Part shown: positions 3 through 13,653 of the stretch, piece after piece
Layout of the letters: every line of letters begins with the position of its first letter
Position numbering within the stretch: the stretch's first letter is position 1
Assembly (NCBI GenBank): GCA_048941265.1
Contig: JBHLNT010000110.1
Span: 1-13,882, forward strand
From: Promethearchaeota archaeon
GTDB lineage: Archaea > Asgardarchaeota > Lokiarchaeia > Sigyniarchaeales > SOKP01
Direction: 5' to 3'
DNA length: 13,882 nt
Made by a program: the position numbers and the translations under genes
The notes under the pieces: generated by a model
The model's database searches: none
What the model saw: the letters and a program-made list of their open reading frames with translations, nothing else
What the model was told of the DNA's origin: nothing

Positions 3-1010
3 AAAAAAGCAACAAATGAAGTTCAAATCATAATTTATGAAAATAAGAAAATATCCGCTAATGGAAGGAAAAATTTAGAAATTTATGATTATCCAAACAA
101 AGAAATTATAACATATTCAAATCAACAAGTGGATAAGCTTCGAATTTGTTTTAATAAAAATTGTCCCTTATGTGAGAATGCAAAAAAATTATTTGTTTAT
201 ACATTTAAAAAAAATTGCCCTTATTGTAGTTCAGAAACAGTTAAGTTAAATAGAATTAGGATAAAAATTAATAGCCTATTATTTCAATTAATAAATAAAA
301 TTGAAAGTGAGGGAGATTTAAATTATTTAAATCATATAAATTTCCCTCGTATGATTAGAGGAGAAGAAGATAAGGGTTTAAAACAAGTTAAAGCAATTCT
401 AAATAAAGATTTAAATGGCTCATGTTATTTTATTAACGCAAAGGATGATTTTCGATATTATTTCATAGAAAAAAAAAGATCTTTTAACATTGACGAAATC
501 AATGATAGTGTGCTAAAAGGAGATAATTATGAATATTACAAAAATCCTAAACTTCTTATTAAACATAACAATATTATCCCCGAAGCTATTTATATGGATG
601 AAAATATATGTTTTACTTCCTCAGTTTATTCACTACTCCATGATGATCCCACAGAATTAAAATTTCTATGTGCAATACTAAATTCCATCTTAATGCAATT
701 TTATTGTATGTATGGAATAAATAATCAAAAAGATACTACGATAAATTTGAATCAATATATGATTAGGCATCTTCCTATAGTAAAACCAGAAAGCCAAGTT
801 AAATCCGAAATTGTTAAAAAAACCGATAACGTCCTTAATTTATTTGAAGCTAGTACAGGCGAATTAAATGAAGATATTATCAAAGTTTTAAGGGAGATTG
901 ATAATCTTATTTTTAATCTTTACTCTATTACTGATAATGAGAGAAATATTATAATAAATAATGTTAAAAATAAAATAGATTTTTTTGATATTATCTATTC
1001 CTTCCAGTAG
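3..1010 (+). CDS. C-terminal part of an N6-adenine DNA methyltransferase / type IIG-like RM protein with a TaqI_C-like target recognition domain (5' truncated by the window edge)
   Basis: The frame is open from nt 3 (KKATNEVQIIIYENKK...), so GTG at 129 is unlikely to be the start. PKLLIKH...AIYMDENICFTSSVYSL...LKFLCAILNSILMQFY...INLNQYMIRHLPI and the end EIDNLIFNLYSITDNERNII match the TaqI_C/Eco57I-type C-terminus. Catalytic motifs lie outside the window. Confidence 0.8.
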   Translation, partial: KKATNEVQIIIYENKKISANGRKNLEIYDYPNKEIITYSNQQVDKLRICFNKNCPLCENAKKLFVYTFKKNCPYCSSETVKLNRIRIKINSLLFQLINKIESEGDLNYLNHINFPRMIRGEEDKGLKQVKAILNKDLNGSCYFINAKDDFRYYFIEKKRSFNIDEINDSVLKGDNYEYYKNPKLLIKHNNIIPEAIYMDENICFTSSVYSLLHDDPTELKFLCAILNSILMQFYCMYGINNQKDTTINLNQYMIRHLPIVKPESQVKSEIVKKTDNVLNLFEASTGELNEDIIKVLREIDNLIFNLYSITDNERNIIINNVKNKIDFFDIIYSFQ

Positions 1011-1051: not shown

Positions 1052-2065
1052 TTATTTAAATTTAAAGTGAAAATCACATACCGAATCTCCTACTCCTAGA
1101 AATTGCCTTCTCTCTAATACAATCTCCGGATTAAATTCTTCAATCGCAGGTTCATAAAAAGGAATACACATATCTTTACAGATGGCTTCGATTCTATCAT
1201 GTCTTGCTGGATTTCGATCCATCATATCTTTATATGGGCAACCAGTAATGTTAAGTAATGCTTCAATCTCTTTTTGGTCTACAATTTCATATTTATAACC
1301 TTCGCATGCCCACATAAATTCAAGGATTTTTATTAAATCTTTAATTGAATTACCCTCTATATTAAGATAACGCTTCATTCTTCGAAATATAATTTGATAT
1401 AATCTCTGCCAAACAACAGTATCTATTTTTAAAGCCAAATCATACCCCAATTCATTTTCAGTTTCAACCATCCACAAACCATCCATAGTGAACCAATGGC
1501 TTTCGTAATAAAATAGTTTATCATCTACAGATGCTTCTTGTTTTAAAAAATCAACTGGCGATTTTACTCCATTATTATTAAAAGCAAACTTAAAATCACA
1601 TAAATCATCGCCAAGCCCTTGAGATTTGATTACATTAAAAGTAATACTATTTTTAGTGTCTTCAATTACTTCTTTATAAAATGGATGACACATCTTCTCA
1701 CAAATTATTTTTATCATATCTCTACGCTCTGGATTACGATCCATCATTTCTTTATATGGACACGTAGATATTCCAATATGGATTTCATTGGGTTTATTTT
1801 CTAATAATTTATAGCCCCAACCCTCAATAAACCACCGAAATGTCAACATTTTTATAATATCATAAGGAGTATTAGTTTCAATATCGAGATACCTCTTGAG
1901 TCTTCGGAATATAGTTTTCAATAATCTTATCCATACATTTTTATCAATTTTTAACGCAGTCATCCAATCTTTCTCATTTTCAATTTCCAAAAACCATAAT
2001 CCATCTAAAGTAAACCAGTTTCGCTCAAAAAAAAACAGTTTCTCTTCTTTACTTAACTCTCTCAA
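1052..2065 (-). CDS. Tandem two-domain DUF6125-like (V4R / ATC-hydrolase-like fold) protein, ~337 aa
   Basis: Two internal copies of KLF..E..WFT(L/M)DGLW..E.ENE....ALKID..VW.RL...IFRR.KRYL.IE, CPYK.MMDRNP.R...I..IC..MC.PFY and G.GD..CDF.F. Start moved to TTG at 2065 (after GGTAATAAAA) to avoid overlap with the amidohydrolase, which ends at 2088. Confidence 0.75.
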   Translation of the reverse strand: MRELSKEEKLFFFERNWFTLDGLWFLEIENEKDWMTALKIDKNVWIRLLKTIFRRLKRYLDIETNTPYDIIKMLTFRWFIEGWGYKLLENKPNEIHIGISTCPYKEMMDRNPERRDMIKIICEKMCHPFYKEVIEDTKNSITFNVIKSQGLGDDLCDFKFAFNNNGVKSPVDFLKQEASVDDKLFYYESHWFTMDGLWMVETENELGYDLALKIDTVVWQRLYQIIFRRMKRYLNIEGNSIKDLIKILEFMWACEGYKYEIVDQKEIEALLNITGCPYKDMMDRNPARHDRIEAICKDMCIPFYEPAIEEFNPEIVLERRQFLGVGDSVCDFHFKFK

Positions 2066-2087
2066 TTTTATTACCGAGTATTTTCTT

Positions 2088-2954
2088 CTAATTAATTTTG
2101 ATATTAAATAACTTTTTAGCATTGTTGAAAAATATATCTTCATAAAAAGCTTTTGGCATCTCCATCTCAAATAAACCCATCGTAGAGTATTTATAGTCAT
2201 AAGGGATATTTGGAAAATCACTCCCAAAGAGTATACGATCCTGATATGAAATGAGCACCTCTCGCTTTATACGCTTAACCTTCCTCTCGGGAAAAATATT
2301 GTCCGGGATATATATCATAGCGGTATCTAAATAGAGGTTTTCGTGCTTATCCAATAGATTTATAAATTTTTCATATTCAAAAGCCCCCATATGGGCAACT
2401 ATTACATGCATGTCCGGATATTTATCTATAAATTGCTTAAAAAATTTATATCCTACAAAATTATTTCGATAAGGAGCTGTGCCCGCATGTATCGCTAACC
2501 ATTTTCCTCTATCAATGATTAAATCATAAATCGGATACATTCGCTTATCATTTACATGAAAATTTTGGACTAGTGGCTGAACCTTTATGCCAAGAAAGTC
2601 GTATTGATCAAAGAGTTTAGCGATATAATCAATTCGGTCTTTATCATCAGGCCATACACAACCAAAAGGAATTGCATTTCTATGGGTTTTAACAAAATCT
2701 ACTGTCCAATTATTAATAAACTCTGCTACTCCTTCCTTATGAGCATAATTATATGTAGTAAACGCTAATACATTCTGACTTTCGAGAATTTTTGCTAATT
2801 CTTCCGGAGATTGCTTATAATTAATAGGCCATCCTATAATATTACCTTTCTCATCAGGTAATTCAAAAAAGTTCCAAATTGCTTTAAAAATCTGATGAGG
2901 GAAAAAATGACAATGGGTATCTACATACTTGAAATCAAAATGCGAATAGACCAT
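2088..2954 (-). CDS. Amidohydrolase_2 family metal-dependent TIM-barrel hydrolase, ~288 aa
   Basis: Motifs DTHCH, GIKVQP, IHAG, VAHMG, YLDTA and ILFGSDFP. ATG at 2954 has a T-rich TATA-like box ~25-30 nt upstream, so the mRNA may be leaderless. Confidence 0.9.
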   Translation of the reverse strand: MVYSHFDFKYVDTHCHFFPHQIFKAIWNFFELPDEKGNIIGWPINYKQSPEELAKILESQNVLAFTTYNYAHKEGVAEFINNWTVDFVKTHRNAIPFGCVWPDDKDRIDYIAKLFDQYDFLGIKVQPLVQNFHVNDKRMYPIYDLIIDRGKWLAIHAGTAPYRNNFVGYKFFKQFIDKYPDMHVIVAHMGAFEYEKFINLLDKHENLYLDTAMIYIPDNIFPERKVKRIKREVLISYQDRILFGSDFPNIPYDYKYSTMGLFEMEMPKAFYEDIFFNNAKKLFNIKIN

Positions 2955-3047
2955 TAAGTTGAGAAGTGATTCACTCAATAAAAAATTTTGAACTTTTGAT
3001 TAAAACCTAGCACTTTTTAAACGAATATCCAACACTTTTAAAGGCAA

Positions 3048-3118
3048 AATAAAAAGAAAAATGAAAAAAATCGAATGATTCATTCTTTTTGAGTTAGTCT
3101 ACCAATAATCAGAGTAAG
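3048..3118 (-). repeat. Degenerate duplicate of the 3' end and T-rich terminator of the RHH gene (left direct repeat)
   Basis: 3048-3090 matches 6326-6368 at 41/43 nt, and 58/71 ungapped out to 3118/6396. The minus strand reads LTLIIGRLTQKE* against LTTIVRRTPEKE* in the RHH gene. Confidence 0.85.
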
Positions 3119-3328
3119 GTTAATTATTCTCTAATTTATTTTAGTTTTGTTAAATGCTTAGTAAACGTAATTTTATTTATGAACTATATTTTGAATATAG
3201 TTTTTCAAATTTAAGATAATGTATAAAAATAAAGCTAATATACAAATATATCTTTTTAAAAAATATAGTTCTTTTTTATTGAATAAAATTCTAATGACTA
3301 AATTTCATTTAATTAGGGAGATTAAATT

Positions 3329-3856
3329 ATGGATTTAAAAAGAGAAATAATGTTAAAAGTCAGTATTTTTGGAGAAAAAAATGTTGGAAAGACTACTTTA
3401 ACTAAACGATACCTTACTGGGCTTTTTGACGATGATATAAAATCTACATTAGGATCAGAGATTTTTATCAAATTTTTAAATTTTAAAAATTACTTAGTTA
3501 CCCTTCAAATATGGGATTTTGGAGGAGAAGATAAGTTCAGATTTTTACTTCCGATATACTCGAAAGGCTCACATGGAGGAATCTTCATGTATGATCTCTC
3601 AAGACCTAATACTTTGAATAAAATTAATGAGTTTTTAGATCTTTTTAAGCAAGGGTTAGAAGAAAACAAAAAAGAAATACCGATTTTATTGGTTGGTGGA
3701 AAATTAGACCTTATTAACACTAGCGATGGAATATCAGAGAATATAAGGAATTTAATGGAATCTAGAAATTTCTGCAATTTTATTAAATGTTCTTCAATAA
3801 CAGGTGAAAATGTTGAGCGCTTATTTGAATTATTGATTGAAAATATATTGGATTAA
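3329..3856 (+). CDS. Rab-like small GTPase (Ras superfamily, Asgard type), 175 aa
   Basis: G1 GEKNVGKTT, G2 STLG, G3 LQIWDFGGE, DKFRFLLPIYSKG resembling RabF motifs, G4 variant VGGKLD, G5 variant CSSITGENVE. SD GGGAG at 3316-3320. No C-terminal prenylation motif. Confidence 0.95.
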   Translation: MDLKREIMLKVSIFGEKNVGKTTLTKRYLTGLFDDDIKSTLGSEIFIKFLNFKNYLVTLQIWDFGGEDKFRFLLPIYSKGSHGGIFMYDLSRPNTLNKINEFLDLFKQGLEENKKEIPILLVGGKLDLINTSDGISENIRNLMESRNFCNFIKCSSITGENVERLFELLIENILD

Positions 3857-3924
3857 AGAAGTCAATAACAGAAAAACTCGTTTGTAATTGTAAATTTCAT
3901 ACTCCTTATTTTATACATGAACAA

Positions 3925-5007
3925 TTAATAAAATATTTCTTTTGCAATCTCATCTATAGGTCTTAGGATATTTATATCACCAGTCCAATCTTTTAAAATA
4001 TTATAATATATAGATTCAATTTTTTCAACAAATTTTTTAAGTAAGATTTGAAGAGACTTCAATTTCTCATCACATACAATTGCTCCATATATATATTCCC
4101 CGGGTTGTATTAGTATTATTTTTTCCCCCTGATCAATAATTAAAGCTTCTTTTTGCTTGGTAACTGTTTCGAAAAGCATTTTAGCAATAGTCATTCTGCC
4201 AGAAACAATATACTTGCTGTCATTTTCATTTAATCCATCAAATGACTTTTCATAGATAAACAAGCCAGAGTTATGAATAATTAGAATAGAGGATATTTTT
4301 TCTTGCCAATCGAACTCAGAAAAAGATGGAATTGAAAGAGAAAAAAGAAATATTAAAGTTATGCCTATTATTTGCATAATATCCCCAAATAATCTGCCCG
4401 TCAACCCAAAAATCCTTAGCATGAAAGTTAATGTCAGTTGATACCCAATTACAATAAGGATAAGTCCTATACAAAATTCAAAAAATTTTAATTTAAAATT
4501 AGCAATTAAACCCTTCTTATATAGGTCAGAATATATAGATTTTATATAAAATACAAAAAATATTACAAATATGGGCCATAATAAATCAGAGAATAATGTA
4601 GCATACTCCAAACTAAAAAAAAGAATACATATATAAATTATAATCATAATTGAAAATATCTTAGTAAAAAGAAATTTTGTTATAAAAATCTTATTTTTCT
4701 CAAAAATGTAAATGAAAAAAAGTGCAAATATAATAATAATGATATAACCAATATTAATTAGCAAAGTCCTTAATTCAGAATCATAAATCTGGTAATCAGC
4801 AATAATTATTATCATCCATCTAAGAGAATATCCTAATAATACCCAAAAATATGATTGTTCTTGTAAAGTTCTTAAATCTCTCCTTTTATTTTTAATCCTT
4901 ATATAAAATATTAATGCAAACTCTAAAAAGATAAACGCGATAATGCATTCCAATAATAATAATATATCTCTTAACGAACCAGTTATCGGATATAGCTCTT
5001 GAATCAA
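3925..5007 (-). CDS. Membrane protein with ~7 TM helices and a C-terminal longin-like domain (paralog B), ~360 aa
   Basis: Seven hydrophobic segments, then PSFSEFDWQEKISSILIIHNSGLFIYEKSF...IIDQGEKIILIQPGEYIYGAIVC...LLKKFVEKIESIY...WTGDI, a beta-beta-alpha-beta-beta-beta-alpha-alpha pattern. Start moved to TTG at 5007 behind the strong SD AAGGAGGGG. Confidence 0.75.
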   Translation of the reverse strand: MIQELYPITGSLRDILLLLECIIAFIFLEFALIFYIRIKNKRRDLRTLQEQSYFWVLLGYSLRWMIIIIADYQIYDSELRTLLINIGYIIIIIFALFFIYIFEKNKIFITKFLFTKIFSIMIIIYICILFFSLEYATLFSDLLWPIFVIFFVFYIKSIYSDLYKKGLIANFKLKFFEFCIGLILIVIGYQLTLTFMLRIFGLTGRLFGDIMQIIGITLIFLFSLSIPSFSEFDWQEKISSILIIHNSGLFIYEKSFDGLNENDSKYIVSGRMTIAKMLFETVTKQKEALIIDQGEKIILIQPGEYIYGAIVCDEKLKSLQILLKKFVEKIESIYYNILKDWTGDINILRPIDEIAKEIFY

Positions 5008-5023
5008 ATTAATACCCCTCCTT

Positions 5024-6169
5024 TTAATTAAAAATTTTATATATAATAGTATCAAAACCTGAAAATATTTTCTCTTCAGAGCCTTTAATCATCTCTATAT
5101 TTAAGAGAATATTTCGATAAAACGCCTCAAATTCATTTTTAAGTACTTTATGAAAATAACTAACGCTTTTCATTTCTTTCTTAACTAAAAGACAATACAT
5201 AACAAAAGAAAGTGCTTCTTCGCCCTGATTAATTAATATTATAAAATTCCCATGTTCAATCCTTTTTATGGTTCCTCCCTCAATATGAGTCAGACCTGTG
5301 AAAATATCTTTAATCCCTTTTATCCCACTAGAAAATAGAAGTCTGTCCTCCGGAAGAATTAAACTTTCCCGAGAATATTTATTTTTTTCTTCTTGTTTAG
5401 TGAAATCATAGGTATATATAATCTTAAAATTATTATAGTCAATAATATAGAGCTTTAAAACGTTTTCTTTCCATTTAAATTCGAGAAATATTGGAAACCT
5501 ATATGATCCAAAAAAGGTTATCATTAATCCAATCACAAAAAGCGAGATAAATAATAATTGCACAATATTTTGGACCTGGTCAGAAAATATTTCTTGCTTT
5601 TTTTCAGCTCCTAATAAAATGCCACTTATCAGAATGACTTCTCCGATAAAAAAGACTATAATTCTCCTTCTAATATCACCTGATGTTAATTTTATTAATC
5701 TAATATGAAAATAAAACATGTAAATCACTCCAATCGAAACGGCAATTAATATTAGTATGATATAAATTAATGTACCCATAACAAGGAGAATTAATAAGCT
5801 TAATATTATTGTTATAACACTAATTGCTCTACTAATTTTTGGATTAATTATATCACGAAAATCGTTTAGAGAAATAATAAGCTGAAAAATAATTACTCCA
5901 ATCGATACTAAAATATGAGATAAGTAGCGTAAGAGATTACTTAGAGGAATATCTGTAATGTAATAACTATTAATAGAGAGCAAAATCACCCCTGTAACTC
6001 CAAACAAATATAAACATCCCATTGCTACTAAAAAATAATTAAGACGTATTTTCTCATCTTTAACTTTATAAAATAAATAGAAGAAATAAATACTAATTTG
6101 ATAACCTATAATAAGAGAGATAATTGTAAAAGGAAAATAATATTCATTTAAATAATCGGTCCAAATCAT
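5024..6169 (-). CDS. Membrane protein with ~7 TM helices and a C-terminal longin-like domain (paralog A), 381 aa
   Basis: Seven hydrophobic segments, then PIFLEFKWKENVLKLYIID...FSSGIKGIKDIF...IKRIEHGNFIILINQG...YCLLVKKE...LKNEFEAFY. SD GAGGGG upstream of the ATG; 16-nt gap to paralog B suggests an operon. Confidence 0.75.
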   Translation of the reverse strand: MIWTDYLNEYYFPFTIISLIIGYQISIYFFYLFYKVKDEKIRLNYFLVAMGCLYLFGVTGVILLSINSYYITDIPLSNLLRYLSHILVSIGVIIFQLIISLNDFRDIINPKISRAISVITIILSLLILLVMGTLIYIILILIAVSIGVIYMFYFHIRLIKLTSGDIRRRIIVFFIGEVILISGILLGAEKKQEIFSDQVQNIVQLLFISLFVIGLMITFFGSYRFPIFLEFKWKENVLKLYIIDYNNFKIIYTYDFTKQEEKNKYSRESLILPEDRLLFSSGIKGIKDIFTGLTHIEGGTIKRIEHGNFIILINQGEEALSFVMYCLLVKKEMKSVSYFHKVLKNEFEAFYRNILLNIEMIKGSEEKIFSGFDTIIYKIFN

Positions 6170-6325
6170 GTTCTACCCCTCTTTATGAAAAAAATTATTA
6201 TTTTGGGTGACTTAATTTTTTAAATCAGAACTATACTAGAATTAAAGCAAATTCTATAAAAAATTTTTATATTAAAAATGGATGATTCTCTTAAATTAGA
6301 TTAATGTTACGTAGCATATAAAAAT

Positions 6326-6357
6326 AATAAAAAGAAAAATGAAAAAAATGGAATAAT
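6326..6357 (-). terminator. Oligo-T archaeal-type terminator of the RHH gene (part of the right direct repeat, 6326-6396)
   Basis: Runs of T7, T5 and T5 on the minus strand directly after the TGA stop. Confidence 0.6.
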
Positions 6358-6525
6358 TCATTCTTTTTCAGGAGTCCTACGAACAATCGTAGTGAGCTCT
6401 GATTTGAGTAAGTCTCTTATGGCAACTCGTATCACTTCACTTCGATTAGGATAAACGTTAAGATTTACTAATTCTTCGATTCCTGATAAATATGCCTCTG
6501 GCAAATGACACGTTATTAATTTCAA
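6358..6525 (-). CDS. Ribbon-helix-helix (CopG/Arc/MetJ) regulator, CdrS-like, ~55 aa
   Basis: KLITCHLPEAYLSGIEELVNLNVYPNRSEVIRVAIRDLL is a typical archaeal RHH with the PNRSE.IR.A.R signature. Likely start is TTG at 6525, behind AAGGTG/AGGA. Confidence 0.88.
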   Translation of the reverse strand: MKLITCHLPEAYLSGIEELVNLNVYPNRSEVIRVAIRDLLKSELTTIVRRTPEKE

Positions 6526-6619
6526 ATTCTTCCTAACACCTTCAAAATTGTGGTTTTTGTTAATATTAGCATGAGAAGACAAGGATAAATATTAATATAA
6601 TATACATATAACACTCCCT

Positions 6620-6825: not shown

Positions 6826-6838
6826 CTTAAAATTTGAA

Positions 6839-7309
6839 TTAATTGCTTCTCGCATCATTAATGTCTATTTTCTTTGAAGGTTTTTTCCCAACTTTCACTT
6901 TTAACAAGCCGTTGGCCATGACAGATTTTATCGAATCCACGTCTGCGTTCGCAGGTAATGGGATATCCATATCTACATCAATAAAAGTGAAAAAGAACCT
7001 CATAAACGGATGTCCACGTTGACCAGATTCTTCTTTAGTTTCTCCCTCAGTCTTAGGCTTTGATGCTTTAACATTTAAGCTATTGCCTATTAAAGAGACC
7101 GTTACATCCTCTTTTGTACGCCCAGGTAATGGCACTGTAATCAAATAGCCGTCTTCACGATCCTCAATATTGTATGGAACCCATGAACCAATTCTGCCCA
7201 TGCATTCCTCTACATGTCGAGCTATTCTCCCCATGAAATGCGGAAAGCCGTGAGCAAAGGCGTCAGGCCCACACCAATTTTGATGCTTACCTCCTTTTGT
7301 ATGACACAT
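6839..7309 (-). CDS. hsp20: Small heat-shock protein (Hsp20 / alpha-crystallin family), 156 aa
   Basis: PYNIEDREDGYLITVPLPGRTKEDVTVSL, IPLPANADVDSIKSVMANGLLKVKV and the C-terminal IXI motif (KIDIN). SD AAGGAGGT upstream. Confidence 0.93.
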   Translation of the reverse strand: MCHTKGGKHQNWCGPDAFAHGFPHFMGRIARHVEECMGRIGSWVPYNIEDREDGYLITVPLPGRTKEDVTVSLIGNSLNVKASKPKTEGETKEESGQRGHPFMRFFFTFIDVDMDIPLPANADVDSIKSVMANGLLKVKVGKKPSKKIDINDARSN

Positions 7310-10120: not shown

Positions 10121-10358
10121 ATTGATTAAAATTATTGAATTAGATTCGAAATTCTTAAGGCACCTTTCTCATGTGTCTTTTATTTTTAATTTAAAAGACT
10201 GTTTAGATATTACTTGAATTAATTCGATGTTAGCTTTAAATTCTATGAAATCTCACTTTATTTTCCCATTCCATAGATATCACGTCGATATTACTCGGTT
10301 CTATAGACAATGGCTCCGAGTAATATCTCGATAATATGCAAATAAAAAAGAGATCACA

Positions 10359-11255
10359 ATGACTGAAACAGAACTGAAAAGAAATACGGCGTGGTATACC
10401 CTAGTAGATTTACTTCAGGACGAGGTACATAAAGAGAAAGCTCAGATTCCTCCATCTTTCGATTCTATTGCGGAGTTTTTAGCAATTTCTCGTCCCATTG
10501 TTGAACTGATTTTAATGAATTGTGGAGATTGGACGGATCAGATCGAACACAGAGATCGTGGAAAACCCCCGATCTCGCATGTAAGCCTTATGCTCATTCA
10601 CATTTTATCAAAGATGTTAGGGATAAGCTACCGTCAGATAGAACGGGAGTTAAGGATTCATGATACCTGGTTAAAAGCATTAAAATTGAAAAAAGCTCCT
10701 TCTCATTCAAGGTTAAGCACGTTTCGGACGGAATTGGGAGAATCGTTTTTTCAAGCATTTTTTTCTAATCTTACGGCCCTGTTGCATAGATTTGACCTCA
10801 TTCAAGGAGATGAAGCTATAATCGATTCTGCTCCGATTATCGCCTCAATGAACTTTGCACGTGTAAATACCAAACCCCAACTTAATTTAGATCATGTAAA
10901 AGCGTTTTTTACCGCTATTGATGTGTCTCCTGCAACCTGTGTCCTCCGAATTTTTAGGAAATCAAAATACAATCCCGAGTCATTTATACGATTTTTTATG
11001 TTTGAAAAACTCGGGGGCTTCCTTTCCACCTCTCAAGCGTTAAAATTCTTAAACAACTATCCTGAAGTTGTAGAACTCCTGGGATTCAAAAATGGGCATA
11101 TGCCAGATTATCAGAACTTTACGTATTTCAAACGGAAGCATGGAGCGGTTTCTGAATTATTAGAGCCTCTGGTTGATGCTGTCACTGAATTTTTTGAACT
11201 GTCAAAAGCGACCCCGGAAGCATCCGATATTGATTTTTTTTTTTGGAGGGTTTAG
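10359..11255 (+). CDS. Transposase, N-terminal part (DUF772-like HTH, first catalytic Asp, second DUF772-like HTH)
   Basis: RGKPP...GISYRQIE...APSHSRLSTFR and AIIDSAPI. The ORF stops just after a T11 run at 11234-11244. Confidence 0.85.
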   Translation: MTETELKRNTAWYTLVDLLQDEVHKEKAQIPPSFDSIAEFLAISRPIVELILMNCGDWTDQIEHRDRGKPPISHVSLMLIHILSKMLGISYRQIERELRIHDTWLKALKLKKAPSHSRLSTFRTELGESFFQAFFSNLTALLHRFDLIQGDEAIIDSAPIIASMNFARVNTKPQLNLDHVKAFFTAIDVSPATCVLRIFRKSKYNPESFIRFFMFEKLGGFLSTSQALKFLNNYPEVVELLGFKNGHMPDYQNFTYFKRKHGAVSELLEPLVDAVTEFFELSKATPEASDIDFFFWRV

Positions 11256-11811
11256 GAAAGATTGGTGCGGTCCTGATGCAGATGCGCGTATCAGATATTG
11301 TACCTCAAAGAAATTAGCCTATATCGGATATAAATGTCATTTATTATGTAGTGCGGAAGATATGACGGTGCTTAACTTTGACATAACTCCCGCTAATCGA
11401 CATGACAGCCAAATGTGCATTCCAATTGTCATTCAGGCTTGTTCTACCCATTTAAAAACCTTGATCAAAAAGTTGTACGGGGATAATGCCTATGATATTG
11501 AACGAAACCGCACATTTTTGGAAGAACATCATATCAGAGTATTGTTTCACACAAAAGAAGAAACGGGAAAGCATCCTAAAAATCCCGTTTCTGCGAAAAA
11601 GAAAAGCAAAAAACGCTCCCGTGTAGAAGCTTTATTCGGAATATCTCAAGAAAATCTGGGTTTTGGAAGAGTTAATGTTCGTGGTTTGGGTAGAGTTTTC
11701 ATAGATACCGCAATAATTTTTTCAGGATGGAATTTTGGTATCTTATATTCGTATTTCATAAATCAATTTAAAGATCGAATAAGTTTAAAAAGATTACTTT
11801 ACAAATCTTAA
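11173..11811 (+). CDS. Transposase, C-terminal DDE part (+1 frame relative to ORF1; probably joined at the T11 run)
   Basis: DADAR...GYKCH, TPANRHDS, LYGDNAYD (second Asp) and KKRSRVEALFG (Glu). Deleting one T fuses both ORFs into ~483 aa. Confidence 0.85.
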   Translation: MMLSLNFLNCQKRPRKHPILIFFFGGFRKDWCGPDADARIRYCTSKKLAYIGYKCHLLCSAEDMTVLNFDITPANRHDSQMCIPIVIQACSTHLKTLIKKLYGDNAYDIERNRTFLEEHHIRVLFHTKEETGKHPKNPVSAKKKSKKRSRVEALFGISQENLGFGRVNVRGLGRVFIDTAIIFSGWNFGILYSYFINQFKDRISLKRLLYKS

Positions 11812-11915
11812 TTAGTGGTTAATTCTAATAATATCTAAACAGTCTTTTTAAATGAAAAAAAGTTAAGAGAATTAAGGATGTTTGAAAAAAGTCCAAAATG
11901 AATATTTTTTATTAA

Positions 11916-12918: not shown

Positions 12919-13104
12919 TTTATTACCTTAGAAAACTATGTTTACTTTTGGATTTTTGTAAGCAAAGGACATAAATTCACATATAAATTTTATACTTAAG
13001 TACAATGGTTTTTTATTTCTCAAGAATCTTTTAAACTCAGAGGGATTAAATAATAAAATCTATTCAAAAAGTGCTTTTTTGCTTTATTTTAAATAAAAAA
13101 AAGG

Positions 13105-13653
13105 TTAGGGAATTGAGATAATTTGATAAAAGTCCAGAACTATTAATCCTAAACAGATGAGTTCTAAAAATATCCATAGATTGCGTTTTAAACTTCTCAC
13201 TGCTCCTAATGGTTTACCAGAGTAGTTTATTACATTATAAATGAAGATCACTATCCATGCAGTAAGAAGAAAGGAAACTGGTAATAATAAGACAATAAAT
13301 TGGCGACCAGTATAGGTTAATAGATATTTATAGCCAAGTATTGCAAATCCTGTAATGATAAGAGTGAAGCCGAATCCGAACGAATATTCAGCAAAGGTAA
13401 CAAAGCGGTTAATGCGTTTTTCAGAAACATTACCTAAATTTGCTTCAAAATACGCCTTCGAATTAGCAGTTACAGAATTAACGATAAAAATAAACGAAAT
13501 CATTAGTAAGAAAGTTGCAGTAACTATCCCGCTCAGGGGTGGTACTTGCCATATCAATGCAAGGATTGTCAAAACTGCCCCAATCATTACAGTGCTGAGT
13601 GTAATCCAGTCTCTCACATTTATTTTTTTAGATGCATCTTCTTGATTACTCAT
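13105..13653 (-). CDS. Hypothetical integral membrane protein (~5 TM), 182 aa
   Basis: Clean ORF with five hydrophobic segments; no family recognised. Confidence 0.8.
   Translation of the reverse strand: MSNQEDASKKINVRDWITLSTVMIGAVLTILALIWQVPPLSGIVTATFLLMISFIFIVNSVTANSKAYFEANLGNVSEKRINRFVTFAEYSFGFGFTLIITGFAILGYKYLLTYTGRQFIVLLLPVSFLLTAWIVIFIYNVINYSGKPLGAVRSLKRNLWIFLELICLGLIVLDFYQIISIP

Follow-up and report, generated by a model that had tools for sequence, protein, structure and literature searches.

Duplicated gene end around a 7TM-GTPase gene block in a Promethearchaeota genome: probable footprint of a homology-anchored insertion

Main finding

Our analysis of a 13,882-nt stretch of DNA from a Promethearchaeota archaeon (GenBank assembly GCA_048941265.1, contig JBHLNT010000110.1; "the window" below) shows that a block containing genes for a Ras-family small GTPase and two paralogous seven-transmembrane proteins, 7TM_A and 7TM_B, was inserted exactly behind the terminator of a CopG-type RHH gene, and that 71 nt of the RHH tail and terminator now occur twice. 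We regard the resulting 71-bp direct repeat, with a probability of about 0.6, as the footprint of an old, fixed, integrase-independent and homology-anchored insertion that left an orphaned gene end behind, and not as the attachment site of an integrative element. The window is the whole of contig C77 of a 5.0 Mb metagenome-assembled genome (361 contigs, 91% complete, 4.8% contamination). Below, G000 denotes this genome, G001 to G024 its relatives, L-numbers the loci or contigs that were fetched for comparison, and X1 to X4 public sequencing runs. Genes for PadR, HSP20, RHH, 7TM_B and 7TM_A form a run on the minus strand, followed by the GTPase gene on the plus strand and then, on the minus strand again, by the amidohydrolase and DUF6125 genes. 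The parts of the window that make up the scar and its immediate flanks are as follows.

2088-2978, minus strand: amidohydrolase gene (Pfam Amidohydro_2, E = 1.3e-29)
2979-3047, minus strand: native upstream region of the amidohydrolase gene, collinear with the empty site
3048-3118, minus strand: left, orphan repeat copy, consisting of a decayed 28-nt RHH coding tail (3091-3118) and then the stop and core (3048-3090)
3119-6325, no strand assigned: inserted block of 3207 nt, comprising the GTPase upstream region, the GTPase gene, 7TM_A, 7TM_B and the 7TM_B upstream region
6326-6396, minus strand: right repeat copy, with the last 12 codons of RHH (6361-6396), its stop (6358-6360) and the T-rich core (6326-6357)
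6358-6582, minus strand: CopG-type RHH gene (Pfam RHH_1), owner of the duplicated tail

The direct repeat

Positions 3048-3118 and 6326-6396 align without gaps at 58 of 71 positions with a spacing of 3278 nt, and within them a core of 43 nt (3048-3090 and 6326-6368) matches at 41 positions, including an exact run of 24 nt. These values had been given by an earlier reading of the letters without database searches (the sequence-only reading), and they hold exactly on realignment. Reading both copies confirmed what that account had said of their nature: the right copy consists of the last 12 codons of RHH, its stop codon and 32 nt of T-rich 3' flank, and the orphaned left copy sits within the 350-nt spacer that separates the starts of the amidohydrolase and GTPase genes, where it reads 16 codons that end in a stop and have another stop ahead of them. 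Further 5' of these 16 codons there is no similarity to RHH.

The pair stands well clear of the background. Its ungapped score, 37, is the highest of any direct repeat in the window, compared with 14-19 in 20/20 first-order Markov shuffles, and a search of the whole 5.0 Mb genome with the repeat returned the partner copy at E = 1.9e-14, the next best of the 41 matches listed being an A-rich stretch at E = 1.3e-3. This is the sole significant copy pair in the genome, and the concern that the repeat might be dispersed over many loci does not apply. An assembly artefact, or chance similarity in AT-rich DNA, is scarcely credible as an explanation. The genome was indeed assembled from a metagenome, with the fragmentation and contamination given above, and the right junction is bridged only in X1, the possible or probable source sample; however, chance is countered by the shuffle scores and the genome-wide E value, and the longest exact run, 24 nt, is too short to mislead assemblers. 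Moreover, an X1 contig spans 2000-6964 with 0 differences and even depth, an independent X2 contig (2442-4672, 5 differences) bridges the left junction, and a chimera formed through the shared core would yield the empty site and not a duplication. Misassembly, also feared at the outset, is therefore unlikely. In run X4 we found a strain with pieces of the cargo at 97-98% identity.

The two parts of the repeat have diverged to different degrees: the 28-nt coding part matches at 17 positions (17/28) and the core at 41/43 (core versus flank, Fisher p = 3.6e-4). Counted by eye, the differences in the orphan tail fall on codon positions 1, 2 and 3 as 6/2/3, a spread without a coding pattern that fits neutral decay, and the 61-68% identity of the tail equals the neutral expectation, estimated by hand, for a synonymous divergence (dS) of about 0.3-0.45 per lineage. 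By the same hand estimate the core should have lost a dozen positions, whereas it has lost 2, and it is also conserved between G000 and its closest relative, G007. The near-identity of the T-rich core in both copies points to constraint or to gene conversion: the core would either be a functional element at both places, as the RHH terminator and as an element needed upstream of the amidohydrolase gene, or have been homogenised by gene conversion.

The empty site in relatives

An RHH orthologue was found in 41/41 genomes searched. When all proteins of the window were mapped onto the RHH loci of 15 relatives, the order PadR-HSP20-...-RHH-amidohydrolase-DUF6125-TaqI proved to be conserved among these 15. 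In 0/15 does a GTPase or 7TM gene separate RHH from the conserved gene that follows it, and in 8 RHH is followed by the amidohydrolase gene. In a second, independent set of 10 loci found via the amidohydrolase, RHH lies upstream in 10/10; relatives with this gene order include Promethearchaeota, Hermodarchaeota and Hodarchaeota. Two of these ten are the same records as G007 and G019, which leaves 16 distinct genomes in all that have both genes, and a GTPase or 7TM gene separates the two in 0/16. The sequence-only reading had predicted an empty site with RHH beside the amidohydrolase gene, and the 16 genomes without the block provide it; its statement that removal of one repeat unit restores a collinear run of RHH, amidohydrolase and DUF6125 is likewise sound, as this arrangement is conserved in relatives and the repeats lie exactly at the junctions.

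The spacing between the two genes varies among the 16. The gap is at most 189 nt in 10 of them, 3 have an extra copy of RHH between the genes, and 3 have another single gene there. The extra copies are a partial tandem RHH (residue 25 to stop) directly after the RHH stop in G002 (L037) and G005 (L039) and a full second RHH in G013 (L047); G006 (L038) has a further-deleted tandem RHH. The single genes encode a Na_Ca_ex membrane protein in G022 (L044) and L104 and a GNAT acetyltransferase in L100. The sequence-only reading had advised a look for different cargo at this site, and these genomes have it, but none of these inserts is flanked by RHH-tail repeats. As side observations, the amidohydrolase gene is missing in G009, G004, G006 and G018, and both it and the DUF6125 gene are missing in G012 and G024.

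The junctions can be placed to the base by comparison with G007, whose RHH and amidohydrolase proteins are 92% and 83% identical to those of the window and whose locus reads RHH tail, stop, core and amidohydrolase upstream region in that order. The right copy tracks G007 to the last base of the core and then diverges (by eye, 24/28 in the coding part, and 2 mismatches plus a single 1-nt indel in the core). On the left, the sequence 5' of 3118 is unlike G007; the left copy then matches it at 19/28 in the tail (by eye) and tracks it from the core to the amidohydrolase start, with G007:C72:268-438 matching window 2950-3118 at 81%. Past the core, the left side aligns locally with G007 at a score of 120, which was reached by 0/500 shuffles; the right side past the core has no significant similarity to G007, its score being reached by 185/500 shuffles. 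G007 thus tracks the right copy until the core ends and the left copy from the core onwards, which places the insertion of 3119-6325 exactly behind the RHH terminator. A T-rich, terminator-like tract follows the RHH stop in 10/15 relatives tabulated, the other 5 rows being blank, holding a tandem RHH copy or having no clear T-run. A 9-mer shared with G007 prompted a search of the sequence behind the right core for remnants of the amidohydrolase upstream region; this candidate was rejected, as 185/500 and 102/500 shuffles reach the scores.

Age and fixation

A second carrier of the cargo dates the insertion. Metagenome contig L088, from an organism of the same genus as judged by two flanking proteins, has 80% DNA identity to the window over 3870-6277, with amino acid identities of 71% for 7TM_B, 75-76% for 7TM_A and 76% (87% at the nucleotide level) for the GTPase C-terminus. 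Between L088 and the window, the two 7TM genes have dS values of 0.86 and 0.61, and the ratio of non-synonymous to synonymous divergence (dN/dS) is about 0.2 (0.19 for 7TM_B); the cargo genes have been under purifying selection since the lineages split. The cargo dS of 0.61-0.86 is below the dS of 1.22 for the amidohydrolase genes of G000 and G007, which fits an insertion after G007 had branched off. The insertion is old and fixed.

The same comparison bears on the reverse history, in which the block was there from the start and the relatives without it lost it through recombination between the repeats. A deletion between the cores would leave exactly the sequence of G007, and the amidohydrolase fragment of L088 described below does not resolve the branching of G000, G007 and the L088 lineage. 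Nevertheless this history is very improbable: all 16 relatives with both genes, from several genera, are without the block, and the cargo has diverged less between the window and L088 than the amidohydrolase genes have between G000 and G007.

Between 7TM_A and the convergent GTPase gene, L088 holds a pseudogene fragment of the amidohydrolase 5' end (residues 9-104, with stops and a frameshift; 78% DNA identity over 283 nt, window 2668-2946; tblastn E = 7e-35). The fragment groups with the amidohydrolases of G000 and G007, begins at the ATG and is without the amidohydrolase upstream region. In the window, about 27 nt abutting the GTPase stop (roughly 3870-3900) align with the start of this fragment at 19/27 by eye, a similarity that is weak alone. 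From 6277 on, upstream of 7TM_B, the sequence of L088 is unrelated to that of the window. We also note that positions 1-5423 of L088 are decayed and rich in insertion sequences, with a split radical-SAM gene, split ISL3 transposase pieces and a helicase fragment, and that a 365-nt segment of L088 and the upstream 5.4 kb have no match near the locus of the window.

Similar scars elsewhere in the genome

Comparison of the genome with itself gave 59 direct-repeat pairs of 40-400 nt at distances of 0.3-30 kb, of which 22, chosen by length and spacing, were inspected. Besides the pair on C77, 8/22 have the same layout, in which a gene's 3' end forms one copy and, after 1-4 genes, the second stands as an orphan. 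These further candidate loci lie on contigs C235, C226, C331, C120, C129, C17, C245 and C5, and their cargo includes P-type ATPase, MFS transporter, radical-SAM and lipase genes and a Ras GTPase gene. No integrase or recombinase domain was found in 31 proteins scanned from 7 of the 8 loci (C5 excluded). Two of the loci could be verified against relatives.

C17, 2963-3165 and 7532-7733: scar with HisB, a P-type ATPase gene and a 400-aa gene
C331, 1154-1265 and 6878-6989: scar with a 169-aa gene, three genes and a PAN ATPase gene

On C17, the gene order without cargo is found in G001 and G003, where HisB directly adjoins the 400-aa gene (80% and 79% identity), and in five more relatives HisB adjoins a 33-34% homologue of that gene; the P-type ATPase is present at 0/17 of the relatives' HisB loci. 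On C331, the 169-aa gene directly adjoins the PAN ATPase gene in G001 and G003, and the other 5/7 loci are without PAN within 1.5 kb. At both loci the intact copy tracks the empty site until the cargo and the orphan copy runs into native downstream DNA. The C331 cargo starts just after a T-rich terminator, and at the HisB locus the duplicated unit is the gene tail plus the whole intergenic region. The scar in the window is one of several in this genome, those on C17 and C331 being verified against relatives. On C331 a further direct repeat of 40 nt (95%) lies inside the first, at 1280-1319 and 6828-6867, giving the order A-B-cargo-B'-A', and this cargo may have had a flanking repeat of its own in the donor.

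The loci on C235, C226, C120, C129, C245 and C5 are candidates with repeats of 60-290 nt and 81-94% identity. Ras-family GTPase genes lie in or beside the cargo on C120 and C235. The target genes on C226, C235 and C120 have no orthologue in 24 relatives; on C129 the cargo is absent in 4/4 orthologous loci, where downstream synteny is not shared, so this locus is a candidate only.

The window itself has a further repeat of this sort. A 53-nt direct repeat (79%) at 11846-11898 and 13087-13139 brackets an LCM methyltransferase gene; 13087-13139 corresponds to the last ~10 codons and T-run of a gene for a 182-aa membrane protein, and 11846-11898 lies just 3' of the LCM gene. The repeat scores 20 against a shuffle maximum of 19, which is borderline. 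In 10/10 close orthologous loci of the 182-aa gene LCM is absent within 1.5 kb, with no shared downstream synteny and no definable empty site. We regard the pair around LCM as a possible further example of such a scar.

Tests for a mobile element

Integrative elements that target the 3' ends of genes or tRNAs duplicate the end of the target as direct repeats, leave the target intact and correspond to a single-copy empty site. The insertion in the window resembles such elements in its junction repeats that duplicate a 3' end, in its intact target gene and in the single-copy empty site of relatives; unlike them, it has no integrase, its site shows no reuse, the contigs contain no excision joint and its arms differ strongly outside the 43-nt core. 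None of the 15 window proteins has a recombinase domain, the cargo holds no transposase, there are no terminal inverted repeats at 3119/6325, and neither a tRNA nor an Rfam family was found in the window. A joint that skips the 3278 nt is absent from the assembled contigs of the 4 runs (contigs drop rare variants), those of X2 to X4 covering the window in part. The sole joint detected, from 3071 to 6324 (skipping 3252 nt; one X3 contig, side 21), was rejected as A-rich sequence of another organism, its depth being 26.9 compared with 2-7 for the organism of the window. Nor was reuse of the core seen, either as another copy in the genome or as repeats around the other inserts at this junction.

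A site-specific cassette, with the 43-nt core as att site and a tyrosine recombinase encoded elsewhere in the genome, is accordingly a poor candidate, and an att site of the integrase type is the least likely of anchored recombination, replicative duplication and att-mediated integration. Direct repeats at both junctions with their 24-nt exact stretch, a single-copy "attB" in relatives and the different genes at the same junction in G022, L104 and L100 would all suit a cassette, and the genome does have three matches to the tyrosine recombinase family (PF00589), one on C132 and two on C31. These matches, however, lie on other contigs only and not in or beside the cargo, the other inserts at the junction have no flanking repeat, and the cargo has diverged in place (dS at least 0.6). 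The other scar loci, in addition, use unrelated sequences of 40-290 nt, a misfit with one site-specific enzyme. The sequence-only reading had compared the repeats to attL and attR; in the integrase sense this comparison fails for want of a recombinase, inverted repeats, a tRNA, another core copy or an excision joint in the contigs. Its fallback, an old insertion or a recombination scar, fits the evidence.

A model for the insertion

In our model, a DNA segment with the 7TM_B-7TM_A-GTPase module would have entered the chromosome by recombination at the 3' end of RHH, with homology in the RHH tail and terminator as the anchor. We favour homology-anchored recombination because the repeat ends where homology ends, orphans start at arbitrary positions, the sequences involved are unrelated between loci and a recombinase is missing. 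Two routes may be envisaged. In the first, one-sided homologous recombination would be combined with an illegitimate join, as in the homology-facilitated illegitimate recombination also termed "C-terminal displacement"; in the second, a single, Campbell-like crossover would occur with a circular fragment carrying RHH-tail homology. Both would give the same product, namely an intact RHH gene with its terminator, the cargo, and an orphan tail and terminator placed on the native amidohydrolase promoter. Afterwards the coding part of the orphan would have decayed as neutral DNA and the terminator core would have stayed. We infer the route, as well as which of the two copies is native. The amidohydrolase fragment in L088 is a mirror-image orphan, as expected from an event anchored on the other side. 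To our knowledge, no route of DNA uptake has been described for these archaea.

The closest precedent that we can name comes from bacteria. PMC5361080 proposes homology-facilitated illegitimate recombination as the source of orphaned 3' regions at type VI secretion system (T6SS) and Rhs loci, and the effector-immunity scars at these loci share with our model for the window a one-sided homology anchor, new DNA behind an intact gene and an old 3' end orphaned downstream. The same source also describes the lack of a recombinase or inverted ends, and different genes at the same spot in different strains, and it cites de Vries & Wackernagel 2002, Prudhomme 2002 and Meier & Wackernagel 2003. The scar in the window differs in lying in an Asgard archaeon, in its position at common housekeeping or regulatory genes, where the bacterial cases concern polymorphic toxin genes, and in its very short orphan of 12 codons and terminator.

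Local replicative duplication is the rival closest to this model. Here a segment with the RHH tail and terminator, and perhaps with the 5' end of the amidohydrolase gene, would have been copied in place, by template switching or tandem duplication, with foreign genes ending up in between. Duplication does recur at this spot, as witnessed by the tandem partial RHH copies of G002, G005 and G006 and the full second RHH of G013; the amidohydrolase 5' fragment inside the L088 cargo and the HisB-locus unit of gene tail plus whole intergenic region could be read in the same way. The tandem RHH copies, however, start at residue 25, exclude the terminator and have nothing between them, and the orphan's 16 codons have no trace of RHH upstream. 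The sequence behind the right core, moreover, holds no remnant of the amidohydrolase upstream region, and the L088 fragment is without that region. Finally, the 7TM pair and the GTPase gene, a trio that recurs elsewhere, would need to have arrived separately. We consider such a duplication unlikely.

Several observations weigh against homology-anchored recombination and need to be set beside the evidence for it. The donor order that it calls for, with 7TM_B directly behind an RHH terminator, is absent from the 15 paralogous 7TM loci, from 134 other genomes of the family and from L088; RHH or amidohydrolase genes lie near 0/15 of the paralogous 7TM loci; and the upstream side of L088 holds different genes (radical-SAM fragments and ISL3 transposase pieces). 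With an amidohydrolase fragment inside the cargo of L088, one or more further events must have taken place, and the history has at least two steps, which the simple model leaves unspecified. For an old event, the contrast between the core (41/43) and the tail (17/28) needs an extra assumption, constraint or gene conversion. A recombination breakpoint at the insertion was tried and rejected: synonymous divergence of RHH relative to that of the amidohydrolase gene amounts to 0.45 in the pair G000-G007, a ratio that lies between the 0.31 and 0.79 of two other unsaturated pairs, several rows of this table having been ignored for frame errors (non-synonymous divergence, pN, about 0.7). Between G000 and G007, RHH has a dS of 0.33 and 92% DNA identity over 264 nt, and the amidohydrolase gene has the dS of 1.22 already given. 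Lastly, the two recombination routes and replicative duplication are indistinguishable from the product alone.

The cargo and the link between GTPase and longin-like proteins

The inserted block contains the following genes and spacer.

3329-3856, plus strand: Ras-family small GTPase gene, 175 aa, assigned by Pfam, convergent with 7TM_A
3857-3924, minus strand: spacer between the GTPase stop and the 7TM_A stop
3925-5007, minus strand: 7TM_A, called protein of 360 aa, the longest open reading frame beginning at 5055
5024-6169, minus strand: 7TM_B, 381 aa, directly upstream of 7TM_A and its paralogue

The GTPase matches Pfam Ras (PF00071) at E = 1.2e-30 with 106.6 bits against a cut-off of 21.6, and also the Roc and Arf profiles. 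7TM_A and 7TM_B have no Pfam match, and in tblastn they give weak cross-matches to each other. An AlphaFold2 model of 7TM_A (22-sequence alignment, mean pLDDT 80.3) has seven long helices followed by a beta-beta-alpha-beta-beta-beta-alpha-alpha domain. The best matches of the model to PDB structures in Foldseek are zeta-COP and AP sigma subunits, which are longin proteins, and MK-D1 Roadblock2/3, LAMTOR and MglB, which are roadblock proteins; the matches are modest (E 1e-3 to 2e-2, TMt 0.43-0.63), and the top 50 are almost all longin or roadblock. On this predicted structure, "7TM-longin" would be a fair label at the level of the fold. The predicted arrangement would resemble MglA-MglB, Rag-Ragulator and the Asgard roadblock and longin proteins in pairing a Ras-family GTPase with two C-terminal domains of longin/roadblock fold, and would differ from them in the fusion of each longin-like domain to seven transmembrane helices and in the tandem arrangement of the pair.

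The partnership is suggested by gene order. The order 7TM_B then 7TM_A is kept in 14/15 paralogous loci (L079 has 7TM_A alone), and a Ras-family GTPase gene adjoins the paralogous 7TM pair in 8/15 loci in varying orientation, one of them on contig C143 of the same genome. The functional link between GTPase and 7TM proteins is better supported by this recurrent neighbourhood than by the repeat. The sequence-only reading had taken the repeat as independent support for such a link and had the three genes arriving as one cassette; we retain neither point, as the repeat alone is no proof of joint travel and the amidohydrolase fragment between the 7TM pair and the GTPase gene in L088 implies a further event. 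Three near relatives of 7TM_A (76-81% identity) were found on contigs of 1.3-3.2 kb. Among 134 other genomes of the family there is no closer copy of the cargo, the best DNA match being 66%.

In the alignment of cluster-linked GTPases, the residue after DxxG is not a glutamine, as it usually is in Ras, and NKxD reads GGKxD. Judged from the motifs, such departures would fit dependence on a partner for GTP hydrolysis.

Other features of the window

At the left end of the window lie two more genes of the conserved run.

3-1010, plus strand: gene with a TaqI_C domain, at the left end of the window
1052-2227, minus strand: DUF6125 gene with two domains, assigned by Pfam

The DUF6125 gene is an internal tandem duplication, with repeats 522 nt apart and two DUF6125/ATC_hydrolase halves, both of which map to one single-domain gene in G009, G002, G005, G004 and G006. 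The true start of the neighbouring amidohydrolase gene is likely to be the ATG at 2954, because its orthologues align from residue 8-9.

GC content varies from about 0.21 to 0.40 along the window. An insertion sequence at 10180-11861 has 43-nt terminal inverted repeats (86% complementary) and two overlapping open reading frames (DUF772 and DDE_Tnp_1), and its GC content is about 0.38-0.40 compared with about 0.28 in its surroundings. In G018, fragments of a related transposase lie directly behind RHH (L042, 6694-7077), where the amidohydrolase gene is missing.

Meaning for the Asgard lineage

The entry point of a longin-GTPase module into an Asgard genome is fixed to the base, and if our model is right, the module entered by recombination at a gene terminator rather than through a mobile element. 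The recurrence of such scars at further loci suggests that exchange among relatives is a general way of gaining genes. The link among the three genes rests on their recurrent neighbourhood in paralogous loci and not on the repeat. Such neighbourhoods may be useful in a wider sense, GTPase-regulator pairs being otherwise hard to assign in Asgard genomes according to Tran et al. 2024 (PMC10933270), who report that GTPase genes of MK-D1 are generally not in operons with roadblock or longin genes.

It is tempting to speculate further. This Asgard lineage might routinely gain blocks of genes, membrane-anchored longin-GTPase modules among them, by integrase-free, homology-anchored recombination with the DNA of relatives, each event leaving an orphaned end by a terminator, and the core could perhaps be a functional cis-element kept in both copies; we put this forward tentatively, as a possibility that we judge somewhat below even. 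Membrane-anchored longin-GTPase modules are of the kind discussed for eukaryogenesis, and we know of no gene-transfer route described for this Asgard group. If the proposal is true, the scars would amount to a record, datable and spread over the whole genome, of how DNA has been exchanged in the group.

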